NCBI GenBank assembly: GCA_022820125.1
Contig: JAJEGA010000014.1
Span: forward strand, 18,567 to 82,566
Direction of reading: 5' to 3'
Source: Anaerolineae bacterium
GTDB taxonomy: Bacteria > Chloroflexota > Anaerolineae > Aggregatilineales > Phototrophicaceae
DNA: 64,000 nt
Part shown: positions 38,865-45,846 of the stretch, piece by piece
Layout of the letters: each line of letters begins with the position of its first letter
Numbering within the stretch: position 1 is the first letter of the stretch
The notes under the pieces: model-generated
What the model was told of the DNA's origin: nothing
Databases searched by the model: none
The model's input: only the letters and a program-made list of their open reading frames with translations
Translations under genes and position numbers: made by a program

Positions 38865-39215
38865 TCACGGCAAAAAGCCAAACCATTGACAAAAACGCGT
38901 TGGATGCTCGGCGCAGCTTTCCGGCGCGTTCAAATATAAAAAAGTAAAACCGGCGCATGCGATTAAGCCGATGATGAGCAGCGTGCAGCCGCACCAGGCG
39001 ACCGGGCCTCCCTGCGCCACTTCAACCACAACTTCAATCACCCCAGCGATGACATCGAATATGCTGCTGATCGCCTGTAGCAAAAAACCAATGACAACAA
39101 GCGCGACGCAAAGCAGCGCGCAGCCAACTGCGATCCATGGCAGGTGCGCAGGATCAATGTTTTGCAGCAGCTCCATCACCCCGCTCCATTGCCCCAAAGC
39201 CGCGCCGAGCCGCAC
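38865..39215 (-). CDS. Small hypothetical membrane protein
   Basis: 116-aa ORF with two or three hydrophobic segments, 3 nt downstream of the preceding ORF. No recognisable motif. Confidence 0.4.
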   Translation of the reverse strand: MRLGAALGQWSGVMELLQNIDPAHLPWIAVGCALLCVALVVIGFLLQAISSIFDVIAGVIEVVVEVAQGGPVAWCGCTLLIIGLIACAGFTFLYLNAPESCAEHPTRFCQWFGFLP

Positions 39216-39218
39216 CGC

Positions 39219-39716
39219 TTAGCAGACATCGCCATAAGTCCGGGCGAATTCCCAGTCCGCGCCCGCGTCTTGCCGCGTGTAGCAGTCGCAAAAGCTGACA
39301 TTCTGATTGCCTCCACTGGCCTCCCAGAGCAAGAATCTCACCGCCGTTTCTACGCAGAGCGAATTATCATCCAACTGCGAGCCTGCTATCCAGGACCGCT
39401 CTATGCGCAGCCCGCGATCTTCCTCTTCGCTCACCAACGCAATCAGCAAGAGCGGATGCGCATGCGGCTGCGGCGCCTGTCGCTGCTCGAGACGAATCTC
39501 ACCCCTTGCCGCCAGGTAAAACAGCGCGCAGGGCATCATCAAAACGGCAAACCAAAACAGCAGAGCCAGCGCGCAGCCAAGCCGGCGCGCCTTGCCTCGC
39601 CTGGCGCCAGCACGCCTCGCCTCGCCCAGCGCCGGTTCATCCAGCGCAGCCCTTTCCGCCTCCGCCCGTGCTTCAGCCATTTGGCAACCAGTTGCATCGC
39701 CTGGACGATGCGTCAA
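39219..39716 (-). CDS. Hypothetical single-pass membrane protein with Cys-containing extracytoplasmic domain
   Basis: 165 aa: Arg-rich N-terminus, one TM helix, and a C-terminal domain with four Cys. Confidence 0.4.
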   Translation of the reverse strand: MTHRPGDATGCQMAEARAEAERAALDEPALGEARRAGARRGKARRLGCALALLFWFAVLMMPCALFYLAARGEIRLEQRQAPQPHAHPLLLIALVSEEEDRGLRIERSWIAGSQLDDNSLCVETAVRFLLWEASGGNQNVSFCDCYTRQDAGADWEFARTYGDVC

Positions 39717-39791: not shown

Positions 39792-40268
39792 TCATCCGCC
39801 TGCATCGCCATGAAAGCGCAGCACGATGTTGTCAGCTTGATCATAGCTAACATGTGCCTGCGCCGGCGGCTCATCATCGTTCATCGCGAAGATTCTGGCC
39901 AGCAACTCCGGCAGATCTTCAACCAGGTCAAGCTCAAATACGCGGCCCTTCTCTATCCACTCCAGCTTGCCTTCGGGGCAATCGCCGCGCGCCTTTCTCG
40001 TTTCGCTGATCGCCGTATAGACAAAAAGCAGGATTCCCGTCGCGCCGCCCGCATCAATATTGTGAATGCCGCGCAGCCGCAGCGAATGCGGGCGCAAGCC
40101 GCTTTCTTCTTCGATCTCGCGCAAGGCGCTTGTCGCCGGGTCTTCGTCCCGCTCAACATGCCCGCCCAGCCCATTATACTTGTTGGGGAAGACCTGTCTG
40201 TCAGCCCCGCGTTTGATGAGCAGCACAGCATCGCCGTTCAGCACAAATGACAGCGTGCGAGGCATCAC
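39792..40268 (-). CDS. NUDIX hydrolase
   Basis: Nudix box GLGGHVERDEDPATSALREIEEESGL. Confidence 0.85.
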   Translation of the reverse strand: MMPRTLSFVLNGDAVLLIKRGADRQVFPNKYNGLGGHVERDEDPATSALREIEEESGLRPHSLRLRGIHNIDAGGATGILLFVYTAISETRKARGDCPEGKLEWIEKGRVFELDLVEDLPELLARIFAMNDDEPPAQAHVSYDQADNIVLRFHGDAGG

Positions 40269-40416: not shown

Positions 40417-41235
40417 ATGAACCAGAATCCCCACAGCGTGGCGCCGCCAAAGCTGCGCATCGTGCGGGTTGAAGCTGTTTTGCCGCACGAAACAGGCGAC
40501 CCGCAGCGGTCGCGGCCCCTGATGGAACGCCTGAGACAAGCCGAGTACTTCACCAATCCGCCAGTCGTTGCCGACGTCGACCGAGACCGCTATGTGCTGA
40601 TGGATGGCGCCAATCGCCATCACTCTTTGAAAATGTTGGGTTTCCAGCACATCCTGGTTCAGATCGCTGACTACGAGACCGACAGCGTTGAGCTCGGCGT
40701 TTGGCAGCACATCATTGCCGATTGGGATGCCCAGCGGCTCTTGGCTTTGCTCAAAGCCATCCCCGATATTGAGCTGAGCCCGGGCTTATGCGCTGATGCC
40801 TTGGCGCAGGTGATCCTGCGTGATGGGCCCGAATATAGCGTCACAGCAAAGGTCGACAGCCTGGCGCAGCGCAATCTTACTTTAAGTCAAGTGGTCGAGT
40901 CTTACCACAGCAATGCGACGCTTTACCGGACGCCGCTGACCGATCCCGCTATGATTTGGTCCACATTTCCCAGCAGCGTCGCCTTGGTGATCTTTCCGCT
41001 CTACCAGCCGAAAGACATAATCAAAGCCGCGTTGCAAAACGCGTTTCTGCCGCCGGGTGTCAGCCGGCATATCATCCATGGCCGCGCGCTAAATCTCAAT
41101 TATTCTATGGCGCGCTTGCGGTCGGCGCTGCCGCTCGCCGCCAAGAACGATGAGCTGCAACAATGGCTGCGGGAGCGCTTCGCCGAGCGCAGCGTCCGTT
41201 ATTATGCTGAAGCCACTTACCAATTTGATGAGTGA
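40417..41235 (+). CDS. ParB/sulfiredoxin-fold (ParB-like nuclease domain) protein, function unknown
   Basis: Trimmed to the ATG at 40417. PPVVADV..RYVLMDGANRHHSL resembles the ParB/Srx DGxHR nucleotide-binding motif. Confidence 0.55.
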   Translation: MNQNPHSVAPPKLRIVRVEAVLPHETGDPQRSRPLMERLRQAEYFTNPPVVADVDRDRYVLMDGANRHHSLKMLGFQHILVQIADYETDSVELGVWQHIIADWDAQRLLALLKAIPDIELSPGLCADALAQVILRDGPEYSVTAKVDSLAQRNLTLSQVVESYHSNATLYRTPLTDPAMIWSTFPSSVALVIFPLYQPKDIIKAALQNAFLPPGVSRHIIHGRALNLNYSMARLRSALPLAAKNDELQQWLRERFAERSVRYYAEATYQFDE

Positions 41236-41241
41236 TGCGCG

Positions 41242-41679
41242 ATGAGCCAAACCGTCGACGGTGTTTTGCGGCGCGCCAGCCTGTACAGCGACGGGCGGCG
41301 CTACCGCATTCTGAAGCTGCCGCCGATTGCGGCTGCGCTTGCCGTCGGCGTCGTCGCCGAAATCGCAATGCCCTTCTGCGCGCTCATCGTGGATAAGGAC
41401 GAAGTCACGCTGATGATCCCGGACGAAGCGCGCTCGACATTCAGCAGCCGGCTGCGCGGCGCGATCGCGGGCGAACGGGCGTACCGCCTGATTACGCTTG
41501 ACGCGGCGCTGGACCCGGCCCTGGTCGGGCTCATGGCGCGGATTGCCGCGGCGCTGGCGGCAGCCGGAATACCAATTCTGACCTTTGCCGCCTATTCGCG
41601 CGATCATGTATTTGTATCAAGCGACGACTTTGAAGCCGCTTTACGCGCGCTTCAGCAGCTGCAGGACGAAAGCGCATAA
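41242..41679 (+). CDS. ACT-domain protein (CASTOR/ACT_7-like)
   Basis: 145 aa. YRILKLPP...ALIVDKDEVTLMIP and LVGLMARIAAALAAAGIPILTFAAYSRDHVFV are ACT-type ligand-binding segments. Confidence 0.55.
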   Translation: MSQTVDGVLRRASLYSDGRRYRILKLPPIAAALAVGVVAEIAMPFCALIVDKDEVTLMIPDEARSTFSSRLRGAIAGERAYRLITLDAALDPALVGLMARIAAALAAAGIPILTFAAYSRDHVFVSSDDFEAALRALQQLQDESA

Positions 41680-41681
41680 TC

Positions 41682-42044
41682 ATGGAAATCAACCTCTTCA
41701 ACGATGCCAGCCTGGTGCCACAGCCGAAGCGCAAGGTCGCCATTGAAGACTTCCGCGTCGAGCCCTATCCCGATCGCTTTCGCGTCAAGGTCAATCTCAA
41801 GCTCACGCCCTTTCAGGAGCGCCCCAACCTGACGATAACCGCGCGCCGCTCCGATGGGCTGCAGGTGAGCGATCTGGATGTCATCGCGACCATGCACTTC
41901 GATAACGAGTTTACCATGCACATTCGGGGCATCGACGACCCGAGCGGCGACTACACGCTGACGGCGGAACTCTATTATGAGACTCGCAATCCACCCCAAG
42001 ATTCGCGCCAGATCGATTTTGTGATTCTGCCCGAAGACGGCTGA
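41682..42044 (+). CDS. Hypothetical 120-aa protein (beta-rich, no recognised family)
   Basis: Starts 2 nt after the ACT gene, and its stop overlaps the next start (TGATG). Confidence 0.5.
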   Translation: MEINLFNDASLVPQPKRKVAIEDFRVEPYPDRFRVKVNLKLTPFQERPNLTITARRSDGLQVSDLDVIATMHFDNEFTMHIRGIDDPSGDYTLTAELYYETRNPPQDSRQIDFVILPEDG

Positions 42045-42592
42045 TGACGGCAATTAGGATACCCTACTCGGTCGCGCGCCAACTCGCCGACCACGCCGCA
42101 AGCCAGCAGCCGAATGAAGCCTGCGGATTGCTGGCGGGCAGGGACGAGCATATCCTGGCCGCTTATCCCTTAAAGAATATCGCGCCAGCGCCGAAGACGC
42201 GTTTTCAAATTGATCCGCGCGAGCAATTGCAGGCGCTAATAGCGATCGACGAGGCGCAGCTCAATTGGATCGGCGCTTACCACTCGCATCCGCGCAGCGC
42301 CCCGATACCCTCGCAATCGGATATTGAAGCCTGCGTCGACAGCGGGCTGCTTCAGTTGATCGTCTCTATCGCGCGCCGCAAACCGCAGCTCAAACTGTGG
42401 CGCATCAAACCAGACGCCATCGTCCCGATTGACTTAATCTATGAGACAGACGACCCGCCGGCGGATGAACCGGCGCTTTCGCCTTCGCAGCAAGCGGCTA
42501 TGTTAATCGTCGCCATCGCCGCCGTCCTGCTCCTGCTCTTCATTTCCTTCACCCTGCTGCCGCCCGCGCCCGAAATCGTGCCAGCGCCCTAA
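42044..42592 (+). CDS. JAMM/MPN+ metalloprotease with C-terminal transmembrane anchor
   Basis: NEACGLL (Glu) and the complete JAMM motif HSHPRSAPIPSQSD. C-terminal TM helix MLIVAIAAVLLLLFISFTLL. Confidence 0.8.
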   Translation: MTAIRIPYSVARQLADHAASQQPNEACGLLAGRDEHILAAYPLKNIAPAPKTRFQIDPREQLQALIAIDEAQLNWIGAYHSHPRSAPIPSQSDIEACVDSGLLQLIVSIARRKPQLKLWRIKPDAIVPIDLIYETDDPPADEPALSPSQQAAMLIVAIAAVLLLLFISFTLLPPAPEIVPAP

Positions 42593-42612
42593 GCGAATCC
42601 GGATCAGCAGTC

Positions 42613-43452
42613 GTGGATACCTTCATCATAGTGCTTCTCGGTCTCTTGGTCGGGGGCGTCGTCAACGCGCTCGCCGACGATCTGCCTGCCGGTCGGATGC
42701 CGAGTTTGCCCAGATATCCCGACGGCTGCCGACGCCCGCCCCTCGCCTGGCTGGGGATCGCCGCCTTCCTGCTCCGCTTGCGAGGAGCGCCCAACGCGGC
42801 GAACAGCCCCTCAACCGATGACCAGCGCGCGCCGCGAATCTTGTCCTGGCGCTATCCCTTGGTGGAAGTCGCCCTATCCGCGCTGATGACGCTGACCTTC
42901 GCCGTCGCTCGCGATGTCTACGTTTTGTCACTTTTGGAAATCCTGATTTGGCAGGCGATGGCGGCGATCTTTATGCTAATCGCCGTCATTGATCTGGAAC
43001 ACAGACGCATCCTGGCTGCCCCGCTTCTGGCTTGCGCGCTGCTCGCCTCGCTCCGCGCCATCGCCTTTCCGCACAATCCGCCGACCTTCGCCTCCATGCT
43101 GGCCGGCGCCCTGTTCGCCTGTTTCGTCTTCTCGTTTGTTTATCTGGGTGGTCGGCTCTTCGTCAAATTGGCGCTGAGGAATCACCCAGCGCCAGCGACC
43201 GCATTTGGACGAGGTGATGTCTACCTGATGACTGTAGGGGGGCTAATCGTCGGGTTTCCCCAGGTGCTGTCGGCAATGACTTTTACATTCCTGCTGGGCG
43301 GCATCGGCGCATTGGGCTGCGTCTTGGTGATGAGCGCCTCTGCCGGCTATCGGCGTTTCAGCGCCATTCCCTACGCGCCCTTCATCCTGGCGTCCATATA
43401 CCTGGCGACGCTGCTACGCGATGAATTGAACCGCCTGATCTTTGGGCTCTAG
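42613..43452 (+). CDS. A24-family (prepilin peptidase-like) intramembrane aspartyl peptidase
   Basis: 279 aa, polytopic. First Asp context VIDLEHRRI and second FGRGDVYLM (GxGD-like). GTG start. Confidence 0.7.
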   Translation: MDTFIIVLLGLLVGGVVNALADDLPAGRMPSLPRYPDGCRRPPLAWLGIAAFLLRLRGAPNAANSPSTDDQRAPRILSWRYPLVEVALSALMTLTFAVARDVYVLSLLEILIWQAMAAIFMLIAVIDLEHRRILAAPLLACALLASLRAIAFPHNPPTFASMLAGALFACFVFSFVYLGGRLFVKLALRNHPAPATAFGRGDVYLMTVGGLIVGFPQVLSAMTFTFLLGGIGALGCVLVMSASAGYRRFSAIPYAPFILASIYLATLLRDELNRLIFGL

Positions 43453-44553
43453 GCTTTCCTGCTCGTCATCAAACTTGGCGATCACCCCGCCACCCAGGCA
43501 AATCTCCCCCTGATAAACGACCGCCGCTTGACCTGGCGTGATGTCTCGCTGAGGCGCGTCAAATTCGACCCGCACGCGACTGCCCTCCAGTGGCTGCACC
43601 AGCGCCTTTTGCGGCTGAGCGCGATAGCGAATCTTGACCTCGGCGCGAAAGGACCCCGCCGGCAGCGCGCCGCTGACCCAGTTAAAGCGCTCCGCCACCA
43701 GCCGGTCGCGCCCAAGTTCATCTCGCTTGCCGACCACCAGCGCGTTTCTGATCGGATTCAGCGCCAAAACATAGAGCGGCTCGCTGTAGGATATGCCCAG
43801 CCCCTTGCGCTGACCAATCGTGTAATTGGACAAGCCTCGGTGTTCACCCAGCACTTCGCCGGCGCTCGTCACGATGGGTCCCGGGGTCATCAAGTCAGGC
43901 GCGTGCGCTCGCAAAAATTCGCGATAGTCGTTGTTGCCCAGGAAACACAAATCCTGGCTGTCCTTCCTGTTGGCGGCATCCAGCCCCAGCTCGCGCGCAA
44001 ATCGCCGTACTTCGGATTTGGGATAGTCACCCACCGGAAACAGCGTCCGTTTAAGCTGATCCTGCCCCATGACGCTGAGCACATAGCTCTGATCCTTGCC
44101 GGGATCCAGCCCCTTCTTCAGCAGCCAGCCGCCCTGCCGACGCCGCGCGACACGAGCATAGTGGCCCGTCGCCAGGTAGTCGGCGTCCAGCGCGAGCGCT
44201 TGGCGCAGCAGCCAATCGAATCGAATCTTCCGATTGCACTCCAGGCAAGGGTTCGGCGTATAACCGGCGCGGTGTTGATCGATGAAATACTCGACGACGA
44301 TGTCGCGAAAGACACCCTTGCTATCGAGCGCATAAAATGGAATGCCGAGCTTGTCAGCCACCGACCGCGCAATCCGCATCTGATCCGGCGTGCAGCAGCG
44401 ATTGTGCTCGGCGCCGCCAAGCGCCTCATCGGACCACAAGCGCATCATCATGCCGACGACATCATAGCCTTCGCGCGCCAGCAAAGCAGCCGCGACCGAG
44501 CTGTCGACGCCGCCGCTCATCGCGACCACGACGCGCGTTTCGCCCGCATTCAT
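43414..44553 (-). CDS. mnmA: tRNA 2-thiouridine(34) synthase
   Basis: PP-loop VAMSGGVDSS. CCTPDQ and CLECNRKIRF Cys contexts. Confidence 0.9.
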   Translation of the reverse strand: MNAGETRVVVAMSGGVDSSVAAALLAREGYDVVGMMMRLWSDEALGGAEHNRCCTPDQMRIARSVADKLGIPFYALDSKGVFRDIVVEYFIDQHRAGYTPNPCLECNRKIRFDWLLRQALALDADYLATGHYARVARRRQGGWLLKKGLDPGKDQSYVLSVMGQDQLKRTLFPVGDYPKSEVRRFARELGLDAANRKDSQDLCFLGNNDYREFLRAHAPDLMTPGPIVTSAGEVLGEHRGLSNYTIGQRKGLGISYSEPLYVLALNPIRNALVVGKRDELGRDRLVAERFNWVSGALPAGSFRAEVKIRYRAQPQKALVQPLEGSRVRVEFDAPQRDITPGQAAVVYQGEICLGGGVIAKFDDEQESLEPKDQAVQFIA

Positions 44554-45728
44554 GTGGCGAACTCTCGCTTCAATCCGCGTATCTTATCCACTGCCGCAAC
44601 CAGAACATCGAGCGCATAATCGATTTCCGCTTCGGTCGTCGCCGATCCGACCGAGAGACGCAGCCCGCATTTTGCCACATCCGGCGCGTATCCCAGCGCC
44701 AGAAGCGCGTCCGATGGTTCGGGGTTGCCAGTCTTGCAAGCCGATCCGCTGCTTGCCGCGATGCCATTCATGTCCAGATGCATCAACAGCGCGTTTGCGT
44801 CTATGCCGGGCAATACAAAGCTGGCATGCGACGGCAGACGATTCTCGGGGTGGCCCGTCAATTCGGCGCCGGCCACGCGCGACAATAAGCCATCCACCAG
44901 CTTGACCCGCAGGTGACGAAAGCGCGCCAGCCGCTCGCTCGCCTCCGCGTATGCCAGCTCCAGCGCCTTCGCCAGCCCAACGATGAATGCGGTATTGTGC
45001 GTGCCGGCGCGGCGCCCGCCTTCATGACCGCCACCCGTCATAATACTTGGAAGGTCAATGCCGTCGCGAAGGTACAATACGCCGACGCCCTTCGGGCCGT
45101 AAAACTTGTGCGCCGAAAGACTCAACATATCGACGCCAAGCGCTTCCACATCGAGCGTCAATTGCCCGCCCGCCTGAACCGCGTCGGCGTGGAACAAGAC
45201 CTCATGCTCGCGGGCAATCGCCGCCAGCAGCGCCAAGTCATTGATACTGCCCACTTCGTTGTTGGCGTATATGATGCTGGCGATAGCCGCCCCGCCCCGG
45301 CAGGCTGCCGCAAAGCGATCCGCCTTGACTCTTCCCTGCCGGTCCACCGGAACCGCGACGGTCTCGCAATCCATCAGTTCGCCTAGCTGCCTGACTGTAT
45401 TGATGACAGCGCTATGCTCCACCGGCGAGGTGATCAGACGCGCCGCTTTGCCCTGCCGACGCGCGCGCCAAGCGGCGCCGCGAATCGCCAGGTTGTCGCT
45501 CTCAGAGCCGCAGCTGGTGAATACAACTTCCGCCGGCTGGCAATTAAGGATTCGCGCCACTCGTTCGCGGGCCTCTTCAACCGCGCTCTCGCCGCGGCGC
45601 CCTTGATGATGGCTTGATGTCGAATTGCCGTAGACCTCGCCGAAGTAAGGCATCATCGCGTCCATCACGCGTGGATCCACTGGCGTTGAGGCCGAGTAAT
45701 CAAGGTAGACTTCGCGCTTGGCTTTCAT
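44550..45728 (-). CDS. Cysteine desulfurase (NifS/IscS class)
   Basis: SAHKFYGPKGVG (PLP Lys) and SSGSACKTG (catalytic Cys). The stop overlaps the mnmA start. The ATG at 45728 is preferred over the TTG at 45758. Confidence 0.9.
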   Translation of the reverse strand: MKAKREVYLDYSASTPVDPRVMDAMMPYFGEVYGNSTSSHHQGRRGESAVEEARERVARILNCQPAEVVFTSCGSESDNLAIRGAAWRARRQGKAARLITSPVEHSAVINTVRQLGELMDCETVAVPVDRQGRVKADRFAAACRGGAAIASIIYANNEVGSINDLALLAAIAREHEVLFHADAVQAGGQLTLDVEALGVDMLSLSAHKFYGPKGVGVLYLRDGIDLPSIMTGGGHEGGRRAGTHNTAFIVGLAKALELAYAEASERLARFRHLRVKLVDGLLSRVAGAELTGHPENRLPSHASFVLPGIDANALLMHLDMNGIAASSGSACKTGNPEPSDALLALGYAPDVAKCGLRLSVGSATTEAEIDYALDVLVAAVDKIRGLKREFAT

Positions 45729-45846
45729 TTTATGCTCTCGCCTTTGCCACGCCTTCAAACCAAGTTGAGCGATAGTAGTTTCAGCGCGGACGACGGTTTT
45801 CCGCTTGCCGCCCGATCAAGCTGCCCGCGCCACCCGCCCATTCTAA

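Follow-up and report, generated by a model that had tools for sequence, protein, structure and literature searches.

What might a kinase-like protein, a ligand-binding protein and two unrelated peptidases have to do with one another? The question is raised by five co-directional genes at 40417-43452 (plus strand) of the window, the whole stretch of 64,000 nucleotides that we analysed. The DNA is from an Anaerolineae bacterium of the family Phototrophicaceae, and the host genus is sponge-associated. An earlier note, made from the letters of the window alone, described these genes as a tightly coupled operon and suggested that they encode a single membrane-associated module of two proteases with nucleotide and ligand sensing.

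The coupling was read correctly. Successive genes are separated by 6, 2, -1 and 20 nt; the junctions are, in order, TGA plus 6 nt plus ATG, TAA plus 2 nt plus ATG, TGATG (a 1-nt overlap) and TAA plus 20 nt plus GTG. Upstream, a NUDIX hydrolase gene (39792-40268, minus strand; Pfam NUDIX, 2.5e-12) diverges from gene 1, and the 148-nt upstream region is common to both. Downstream, the 3' end of gene 5 overlaps by 39 nt the 3' end of the convergent mnmA, which encodes tRNA 2-thiouridine synthase (43414-44553, minus strand; NCBIfam MnmA, 4e-129). mnmA forms an operon with a nifS/iscS-type cysteine desulfurase gene, here called nifS (44550-45758, minus strand; NCBIfam NifS, 6e-126).

Is this arrangement peculiar to one genome? 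Conservation of gene order had been proposed as a test, and the outcome is plain: the eight-gene string of NUDIX, then SbnI-like–ACT–120aa–JAMM–A24, then mnmA–nifS is present in all 80 species-level genomes or loci. All belong to one Chloroflexota family (Anaerolineae, Aggregatilineales, Phototrophicaceae; at least 80 species). Because the same string recurs in every one of these loci, its conservation is far above chance. Purifying selection acts on the whole set of eight, with dN/dS spanning 0.086 to 0.31 within the five-gene cluster. As to expression, the sole runs found behave like DNA.

Gene 1 (40417-41235, plus strand; 272 aa) has its longest open reading frame from 40066; the start at 40417 is preferred because orthologue alignments begin at residues 1-4. 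The earlier note saw in it a ParB/Srx fold with the motif LMDGANRHH and cast it as a sensor. The two-domain fold and the motif are there, but the sensor role gives way to that of an enzyme homologue: gene 1 is, more exactly, of the SbnI/SerK type over its full length. It matches the NCBIfam models for SbnI (2.2e-17, across residues 12-269) and SerK (1.2e-9), and in the PDB it matches 6nr6 along its full length (2e-11), phmmer pairing residues 13-268 with 8-249. In Foldseek its AF2 model (pLDDT 90.5) superposes on SbnI (5ujd; TM 0.77/0.82) and SerK (5x0b; TM 0.70/0.78), including the C-terminal domain that is common to SbnI and SerK only; the remaining ParB proteins cover just ~85 residues. The residues H24, E25, D63, G64, N66 and R67 do not vary among 37 homologues, H24-E25 aligning to the HE of SbnI and D63-G-A-N-R67 to DGVHR. 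The catalytic Glu is E30 in the SerK structure entries, which include E30 mutants, and its counterpart in gene 1 is conserved. The dN/dS of gene 1 is 0.15.

How close is gene 1 to the characterized enzymes? With SbnI of Staphylococcus and SerK of Thermococcus kodakarensis it shares the ParB/Srx ATP-binding N-domain, the C-terminal domain and the HE and DGxxR catalytic and nucleotide motifs. It differs in its low identity (just ~22% with SbnI and 16% with SerK) and in lying outside any siderophore cluster. It is always accompanied by the 120-aa protein and usually by ACT_7 and NUDIX, none of which is a known partner of SbnI or SerK. Its scores are below both NCBIfam equivalog cut-offs (SbnI NF033589, 63.3 against 350 bits; SerK NF053625, 37.7 against 380). 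Judged by its sequence, gene 1 is a distant subfamily, the equivalog of neither protein; since the scores fall so far under the cut-offs, its substrate could differ from serine. Alignment and structural model together point to a putative free L-serine kinase (O-phospho-L-serine synthase).

The companions of gene 1 are less familiar. The NUDIX gene, for which NCBIfam gives weak MutT-like matches only, adjoins the SbnI-like gene in 78 of the 80 family loci and in four genomes of other families (G027, G033, G035 and G039). Gene 2 (41242-41679, plus strand; 145 aa) is the ACT_7-type protein it had been taken for (PF13840, 2e-14; 53.6 bits against a cut-off of 27); this match, like those of Prok-JAB and Peptidase_A24 below, exceeds the Pfam gathering cut-off. 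Gene 2 also matches the ACT region of CASTOR1 (1e-5) and VC0802 (3.5e-5) in the PDB, and its size is that of a stand-alone ligand-binding module. In contrast to CASTOR1, it is encoded beside a serine-kinase-type enzyme, not in mTORC1-type signalling. It is presumed to be an amino-acid-binding regulatory subunit. Gene 3 (41682-42044, plus strand; 120 aa) encodes a cytoplasmic protein with no sequence match in Pfam, NCBIfam or the PDB. Its AF2 model (pLDDT 94.5) is a seven-strand Ig-like beta-sandwich for which Foldseek returns generic GH2 Ig-like domains only (TM ~0.6). The family of gene 3 comprises 307 clusters at 50% identity; D31, R34, P43, F44, P48 and H80 are nearly invariant, and its dN/dS of 0.086 marks the strongest constraint in the cluster.

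Do these genes need the two peptidases beside them? Comparison with other Aggregatilineales families indicates otherwise. There the SbnI-like and 120-aa genes are kept together, with or without NUDIX and ACT, and the JAMM and A24 genes lie apart. The SbnI-like gene adjoins the 120-aa gene, with no JAMM or A24 there, in five genomes (G027, G030, G033, G035 and G039), and three more (G029, G031 and G037) have the set with ACT; in all eight the JAMM and A24 genes are found either 75-80 kb off or on different contigs. The same grouping extends to distant metagenomic contigs. One (L109) has NUDIX-x-SbnI-like-ACT_7-120aa; in another (L112) the SbnI-like gene and a PALP+CBS gene overlap, and a Cys_Met_Meta_PP enzyme and the 120-aa gene lie alongside. 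The L112 gene shares with SbnI and SerK an association with PLP-dependent enzymes that use O-phosphoserine.

The JAMM and A24 genes have a setting of their own. The order ferredoxin-fumarase-DtxR-JAMM-PlsY-SBP-A24, followed by convergent mnmA, occurs whole or largely in G027, G029, G033 and G039; A24 adjoins mnmA in the last three, and one gene comes between them in G027. The distance from JAMM to A24 is 1.4-2.4 kb in two families (f4 and f6). Within Phototrophicaceae A24 is beside mnmA in most loci (~70 of 80); nifS and mnmA are collinear across the loci of the family and in G029. The proximity of JAMM and A24 to mnmA and nifS is ancestral, an order-wide synteny; the earlier note had allowed that the mnmA and cysteine desulfurase neighbours might be a coincidence, and they are not peculiar to one genome. 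Its single two-protease module fares no better, for the kinase-type set occurs without JAMM and A24 in other families and on distant contigs, and these two genes sit ~80 kb from it elsewhere. The operon looks like two older modules joined, rather than one new two-protease machine.

The explanation that we favour, and on balance hold to be probable, is that this co-transcribed and family-characteristic operon joins two pre-existing modules with separate jobs. Module A, of serine-kinase type, would consist of the divergent NUDIX gene and genes 1-3, and module B of genes 4 and 5, JAMM and A24. In module A, gene 1 would phosphorylate free L-serine, making or interconverting O-phospho-L-serine; the CASTOR-like gene 2 would likely be its amino-acid-sensing regulator, and gene 3 a highly conserved accessory subunit. 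In module B, gene 4 would be a JAMM, catalytically intact by its motif, that turned tail-anchored in Phototrophicaceae. Gene 5 would be the single prepilin-type A24 of the lineage, which in relatives would serve type IV filament systems encoded elsewhere. What the data show is the layout of the genes, their homology and conservation, the limits of the modules and which genes each genome has or lacks; kinase activity, the part of O-phosphoserine in cysteine synthesis, regulation by ACT and any action of JAMM or A24 on particular substrates are inferred.

What purpose might O-phosphoserine serve here? O-phosphoserine from SerK supplies cysteine synthesis (PMC5120207). CysE is found in 0 of 25 genomes of the host genus, as against 10 of 16 genomes of other families, and the host genome has a CysM-like enzyme whose gene is unlinked to the operon (contig C58). 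The distributions of SbnI-like and DUF1015 proteins are nearly complementary: the five genomes without an SbnI-like gene all have DUF1015, and 34 of 36 with one do not. A tblastn search of the host genome with the DUF1015 protein of genome G032 gave no match. In families f1, f6 and f8 it is the SbnI-like gene that precedes ACT; in f2 that position, ahead of ACT_7 and the 120-aa gene, is taken by DUF1015. A GapMind 2026 preprint (bioRxiv 10.1101/2024.10.14.618325) proposes that DUF1015 'SerBK' is a serine kinase resembling SbnI, active in the interconversion of serine and phosphoserine and taking the place of SerB. It differs from gene 1 in its Pfam family and its length (~450 aa), and the equivalence of the two is read from distribution alone.

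Because of this complementarity, and because the genus is without CysE but has the CysM-like enzyme, module A is best read as serving the supply and regulation of O-phosphoserine. The product would most plausibly feed a CysM-like O-phosphoserine sulfhydrylase, and module A may replace the serine/phosphoserine step given by SerBK in sister families. Replacement of SerB itself need not be invoked, since a SerB-like HAD protein is present, its score below the cut-off. That O-phosphoserine can be obtained from SerC too is an observation that counts against the two-module view.

Gene 4 (42044-42592, plus strand; 182 aa) encodes a JAMM/MPN+ protein of family M67 (Prok-JAB, 1.4e-19; 70.5 bits against a cut-off of 25). 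The two features singled out by the earlier note are both real: the zinc site E...HxHx7SxxD is complete (E25, H80-S-H82, S90, D93), and an unusual hydrophobic helix lies near the C-terminus (residues ~154-172). Both E..HSHP..S..D and LLPPxP reach at least 90% conservation among 80 orthologues, and dN/dS is 0.25. The C-terminal TM tail is present in 79 of 79 family orthologues, the LLPPAP tail being conserved. The JAMMs read in four genomes of other families are soluble proteins of 135-160 aa without the anchor, and no stand-alone TM-anchored JAMM of this kind was among the searched matches outside Phototrophicaceae. By this comparison of sequences, the anchor is specific to the family and was acquired in its lineage.

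On what might this JAMM act? Its best NCBIfam match is the desampylase model (87 bits, under the cut-off of 130), and in the PDB it matches 2kks (1e-17) and PfJAMM1 (1.5e-11). Like Mec+ of the Mec+/CysO/CysM system of Mycobacterium tuberculosis and the desampylases HvJAMM1 and PfJAMM1, it is a stand-alone MPN+ protein with E..HxH..S..D intact; a CysM-like enzyme, a GG carrier and a MoeZ-type E1 are likewise encoded in the host genome. It differs from them in having no carrier or E1 gene adjacent and in adding the anchor and the LLPPAP tail. As claimed earlier, no ThiS-like or MoaD-like carrier gene and no E1-like gene lies within the window, which sets the locus apart from carrier-processing JAMM systems of the Mec+/CysO, desampylase and QbsD types. 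A canonical JAMM-Ubl(GG)-MoeZ set is found elsewhere in the genome (contig C102:12534-14620) with a second JAMM paralogue; its carrier is SAMP/MoaD-like with a GG+4 tail and its E1 a MoeZ-rhodanese. Comparison with anti-phage JAB systems (CBASS Cap3, 6A-MBL, E1-E2-JAB) gave only weak, generic JAB matches, none better than E 5.6e-8, and no match to a partner gene.

Gene 5 (42613-43452, plus strand; 279 aa) is a polytopic A24 aspartyl peptidase (Peptidase_A24, 5.6e-10; 40 bits against a cut-off of 26.5). Both Asp contexts that had been noticed are present (VID127 and GRGD202), GxGD being kept in 78 and the first Asp motif in 76 of 79 orthologues, with dN/dS at 0.31. The N-terminal Cys domain is degenerate. 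Because a Pfam search found no DiS_P_DiS (PF06750) match and the N-terminal region has a single Cys, gene 5 resembles domain-reduced A24 types; ~10 species have a shortened A24 of 171-205 aa. It is the sole A24 match in the genome, and most genomes examined also have one only.

What does a prepilin-type peptidase do in a cell without pili? The lack of pilus genes nearby, remarked on before, extends to the whole genome, which has no T2SSE-type ATPase above the cut-off and no ORF with a class III or Flp-type leader. T2SSE ATPases are absent from 24 of 25 genomes of the genus. They are present in 16 of 16 other-family genomes and in 19 of 20 genomes found by way of further loci that carry this operon; the 17 most divergent of these 20 all have them. 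Gene 5 shares with PilD/TadV-type prepilin peptidases (MEROPS A24) the domain, IDxEH and GxGD, the polytopic topology and the single copy, and genera related to the host do have type IV filament ATPases. It departs from them in belonging to a genus without T2SSE ATPases or class III leader proteins and in sharing an operon with a JAMM and a serine-kinase module. Most simply, A24 is the lineage's prepilin peptidase. Since the sponge-associated genus has lost its type IV filament systems and A24 is still under selection, it must have some pilus-independent use there. The two-module view names no substrate for A24 in this filament-less genus.

Other readings of the locus deserve consideration. 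Gene 1 might not be a serine kinase at all, but a ParB/Srx enzyme with another substrate or an NTP-dependent switch, acting with the NUDIX, ACT and Ig-like proteins in nucleotide or small-molecule signalling. The wide shortfall from the equivalog cut-offs would fit, as would the wide conservation of the NUDIX linkage and the report that a SerK-like protein binds CTP, not ATP (PMC12704722). We nonetheless find this improbable: the whole protein, with the C-terminal domain found only in SbnI and SerK, superposes at TM 0.7-0.8, the catalytic Glu and DGxxR are invariant, and SbnI-like and DUF1015 genes have complementary distributions. In addition, L112 shows the SbnI-like gene in translational coupling with a PALP enzyme, the relation that SbnI has to SbnA. 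A broader proposal makes the region one sulfur/cysteine supra-operon. O-phosphoserine, a CysM-type enzyme and a thiocarboxylated carrier would yield carrier-cysteine, a Mec+-like JAMM would free the cysteine at the membrane, and NifS-MnmA would use its sulfur. The CysE-less genus, the CysM-like enzyme, GG+4 carrier and MoeZ-rhodanese of the genome, the desampylase model as top JAMM match, the transsulfuration enzymes linked to the L112 gene and the order-wide nifS-mnmA neighbours all accord with such a pathway. It is quite unlikely even so, given that JAMM never adjoins module A outside Phototrophicaceae, that the carrier and E1 accompany the other JAMM on C102, that cysM is unlinked on C58, and that neither A24 nor the TM anchor is given a role.

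A different possibility, which we judge unlikely, is that JAMM and A24 are a functional pair independent of module A, with JAMM docked to A24 or cleaved by it. The tail-anchored JAMM would sit N-in/C-out as a prepilin does and be cut at the cytoplasmic face near a conserved Q-x-x-[A/G/S/T]-hydrophobic junction, releasing or activating a soluble metalloprotease. This would explain why A24 was retained after the loss of pili. Anchor and LLPPAP occur in 79 of 79 orthologues in which JAMM abuts A24 and are missing from the four other-family JAMMs, the catalytic Asp residues of A24 persist in this genus, which has neither T2SSE ATPases nor class III leaders, and the two genes already lie close in f4 and f6. 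However, adjacency is all that links them; unrelated plsY and SBP genes intervene in f4 and f6, the junction is without the canonical prepilin Gly(-1) and Glu(+5), and A24 has an ordinary job in pilus-bearing genera with the same operon. A non-pilin client for A24, such that it cuts JAMM or holds it in the membrane as a regulated-intramembrane-proteolysis switch for a deubiquitinase-like metalloprotease, strikes us as distinctly doubtful. If true, it would account for the selected survival of A24 in a sponge-symbiont genus without type IV filament machinery. Least credible, and in our view very improbable, is a single membrane-associated processing machine of all five products in which both proteases are under the control of the ParB-like and ACT proteins, the sensors of nucleotide and ligand. 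Translational coupling and the invariant order in 80 of 80 species speak for it; against it stand the separation of the modules in every other family examined, the homology of gene 1 to an enzyme and the wide range of constraint (dN/dS 0.086 to 0.31).

Two further observations count against the preferred reading of two modules with separate jobs. Their fusion has persisted across at least 80 species with junctions of 1 nt to 20 nt, and the TM anchor of JAMM arose in the same lineage in which JAMM came to abut A24. The lasting fusion and the coincident anchoring could reflect a real functional link.

The five genes lie on the forward strand at 40417-43452, exactly where the earlier note had placed them. 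They encode an SbnI-like protein (gene 1, 40417-41235, 272 amino acids), an ACT protein (gene 2, 41242-41679, 145 amino acids), a 120-amino acid protein (gene 3, 41682-42044), a JAMM protease (gene 4, 42044-42592, 182 amino acids) and an A24 peptidase (gene 5, 42613-43452, 279 amino acids). The junctions are as tight as described: TGA-6 nt-ATG, TAA-2 nt-ATG, TGATG with one base in common, and TAA-20 nt-GTG. Three of the proposed identities are borne out by Pfam matches above the gathering scores (ACT_7, 2e-14; Prok-JAB, 1.4e-19; Peptidase_A24, 5.6e-10); the same scan returned no family for gene 1 or gene 3. As an observation, then, the cluster with its domains and motifs is confirmed. The longest reading frame of gene 1 starts at 40066 and runs into the divergent NUDIX gene; 40417 is the right start, because orthologue alignments begin at residues 1-4 of that form.

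A scan for promoters and terminators gave nothing decisive within the operon. The only two candidate 'RNA' sequencing runs (X7 and X8, from a strain about 97% identical) cover the genes of both strands at uniform depth; they are therefore DNA-like and uninformative on co-transcription. The A24 gene (+) and mnmA (-) share 39 nt at their 3' ends (43414-43452), leaving no space for an intergenic terminator, and an overlap or near-abutment also occurs in many related loci. Just past the NUDIX gene, at 38865-39716 on the reverse strand, lie two small open reading frames of 116 and 165 amino acids without Pfam matches, the 116-amino acid product having hydrophobic, Cys-rich segments.

Is the five-gene cluster a single system? 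The earlier note read it as a membrane-associated two-protease module with nucleotide and ligand sensing. The gene order is indeed kept outside this genome. In a sample of 41 genomes of the order (this one and 40 relatives), the five genes are collinear in all 25 members of the genus. A wider pattern scan, using one genome per GTDB species and seeded with an alignment of the SbnI-like protein, returned 390 loci. The best 80 of these come from metagenome-assembled genomes labelled Anaerolineae, Aggregatilineales or Phototrophicaceae, several with sponge or coral metagenomes as their source. The order SbnI-like, ACT, 120-amino acid protein holds in 80 of these 80, with the full five genes present except at two loci, one that stops at a contig end and one lacking an A24 match. 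In most of them the string is flanked by a divergent NUDIX gene on one side and by convergent mnmA-nifS on the other, and the order persists even where JAMM and A24 are only about 30-40% identical to the window proteins.

The single-module reading finds only partial support. Against it stand the other families of the order, in which the cluster falls into two separable parts. The SbnI-like gene adjoins the 120-amino acid gene in five genomes (G027, G030, G033, G035, G039), the ACT gene lies between them in three (G029, G031, G037), and NUDIX adjoins the SbnI-like gene in four (G027, G033, G035, G039). In G037 the string reads SbnI-like, ACT, acidic protein, CoA-binding protein. JAMM and A24 are some 75-80 kb distant or on separate contigs; wherever both could be read they are 1.4-2.4 kb apart, in a recurring context of ferredoxin, fumarase, DtxR, JAMM, PlsY, a lipoprotein substrate-binding protein, A24 and convergent mnmA; in G029, nifS-mnmA is convergent with A24. 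Distant metagenomic contigs carry the first module (NUDIX and genes 1-3) without the second (genes 4 and 5), as in L109, which reads NUDIX, membrane protein, SbnI-like, ACT_7, 120-amino acid protein. Because the modules stand apart in these families and contigs, the operon appears to be an ancient fusion, shared across the family, of two modules that are older still, on balance the best explanation of its composite make-up. Each component is a version of something already known, and their joining is specific to this lineage and does not constitute a new class of system.

The label 'ParB/Srx-fold' for gene 1 was right as to fold and too general; by sequence and structure the protein is of the SbnI/SerK type. 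The NCBIfam SbnI model covers residues 12-269 (2.2e-17), the archaeal SerK model covers the N-domain (1.2e-9), and phmmer aligns the protein end to end with solved SbnI structures, placing H24-E25 over the HE of SbnI and D63-G-A-N-R67 over DGVHR. H24, E25, D63, G64, N66 and R67 are invariant across 37 homologues. An AlphaFold model built from these homologues (pLDDT 90.5) matches SbnI along the entire chain (TM 0.77/0.82, E 2e-17), and likewise the free serine kinase of T. kodakarensis (TM 0.70/0.78); all other ParB, Noc and sulfiredoxin structures match only about 85 residues (TM about 0.25). Although gene 1 shares the fold and motifs of SbnI and SerK, its scores fall far below the NCBIfam equivalog cut-offs for both, which makes it a distant subfamily. 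We infer from sequence and model that this SbnI/SerK-type protein would act on serine.

SbnI synthesizes O-phospho-L-serine for a PLP enzyme. SerK supplies the same compound to cysteine biosynthesis and to the assimilation of serine (PMC5120207). DUF1015 'SerBK' proteins have been proposed to be SbnI-like serine kinases that could replace SerB (2026 preprint, 10.1101/2024.10.14.618325). Within the order, a DUF1015 gene is present in all five genomes that lack the SbnI-like gene (G025, G032, G034, G038, G040) and missing from 34 of the 36 that have it. In family f2, DUF1015 takes the SbnI-like slot upstream of ACT_7 and the 120-amino acid gene (G032, locus L020, 6039-9326; also G025). Between these last two genes G032 has a reading frame resembling, by eye, a polysaccharide-deacetylase protein, and in G025 a gap of about that length occurs there.

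Cysteine synthesis points the same way. CysE was found in 0 of 25 genomes of the genus, versus 10 of 16 in other families; the genome studied here encodes CysM-like and CysK-like enzymes. On contig L112 (1215-5110) the gene for a PALP+CBS enzyme shares 4 nt with the start of an SbnI-like gene, paralleling the sbnI-sbnA coupling of the SbnI system; next to them are a Cys_Met_Meta_PP enzyme and a 120-amino acid homologue, which gives the SbnI-like/Ig-like pair a transsulfuration-type context. The ACT protein resembles VC0802 and CASTOR1, an arginine sensor, a likeness that would suit an allosteric subunit. Together, DUF1015 complementarity, CysE loss, L112 and the ACT protein fit O-phosphoserine chemistry as the likely business of the first module. 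In the search for SerB, no genome reached the TIGR00338 cut-off; a full-length SerB-like HAD protein is present in the genus at 78-97 bits, below that cut-off. The SbnI-like/DUF1015 exchange offers a handle on serine, phosphoserine and cysteine synthesis in CysE-less, SerB-poor bacteria, and the module defines a bacterial SbnI/SerK type with fixed partners: ACT_7, NUDIX and a highly constrained Ig-like protein.

That last partner, gene 3, is modelled as a seven-strand Ig-like sandwich (pLDDT 94.5). Foldseek offers nothing more specific than Ig-like domains from GH2 enzymes, and a search of PDB sequences gave no match. The family is small (307 clusters at 50% identity), a few members weakly matching MG2/CARDB. 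Its gene has the lowest dN/dS of the locus (0.086; mnmA, 0.15), and the protein is clearly important. In P0163, a 902-amino acid protein from the representative library, six stretches homologous to it stand in tandem, so that the domain can also occur as a repeat module.

In the second module, the JAMM motif and C-terminal transmembrane helix reported earlier are both there: E25, H80-x-H82, S90 and D93, followed by a strongly hydrophobic helix. By sequence the catalytic site is intact across 80 orthologues, and the helix is followed by LLPPAP in 79 of 79; relatives from other families are soluble and 135-160 amino acids long. Mec+, desampylase and related systems are defined by a Ubl/E1 neighbourhood, whereas this M67 member has none. 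The genome has a canonical sulfur-carrier set elsewhere, on contig C102 (12534-14620, outside the window), comprising a 141-amino acid JAMM, a 93-amino acid SAMP1/MoaD-like protein ending in AGG-SACN (GG plus a four-residue extension) and a 414-amino acid MoeZ-type E1 with a rhodanese domain. It follows that the operon carries a second, partnerless JAMM paralogue, one that has become a tail-anchored membrane protein throughout one family. A few genes upstream of the C102 set, a 572-amino acid reading frame resembles ATP sulfurylase by eye. A defence role was rejected, PADLOC finding no signature, as was a general sorting signal of the exosortase or rhombosortase style, the JAMM being the only clear carrier of the TM-LLPPAP tail in the genome.

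Both aspartate contexts of the A24 peptidase, VID127 and GRGD202, are present as claimed; GxGD is kept in 78 of 79 orthologues and the first motif in 76 of 79, with dN/dS at 0.31. It is the only A24 gene of the genome, as in most relatives. T2SSE-family ATPases occur in 16 of 16 genomes of other families and in 19 of 20 reached via other loci with the operon, including all 17 most divergent. None was found in this genome or in 24 of the 25 of the genus, the one exception being a 6.6-Mb bin with 6% contamination, and a scan of this genome for class III or Flp-type leaders gave only spurious frames and the ATP synthase c subunit. Unlike known prepilin-type peptidases, then, this A24 is a domain-reduced version in a genus without filament machinery and substrates. 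On the simplest reading it is the lineage's prepilin peptidase, its gene long beside mnmA, kept when the sponge-associated genus lost type IV filaments. The tail-anchored JAMM, with its prepilin-like topology, is the obvious candidate partner or substrate, though we consider it improbable that it is an A24 client; the literature on non-pilin A24 substrates yielded general reviews only. With retention after filament loss preferred, a single A24 with intact catalytic motifs amounts to a natural experiment in which a search for non-pilin substrates is directly testable.

Shortened A24 proteins (171-205 amino acids) occur in about ten species. One subclade (L078, L080-L084, L088 and L089; G005, G010 and G013) carries a truncated A24 of 171-174 amino acids, core domain only. 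Where the JAMM could be read in this subclade (L088, L089, G005, G010) it is shorter too, with 173-174 amino acids, and stops directly behind LLPPxP; the short A24 and short JAMM may co-vary, or may simply share ancestry.
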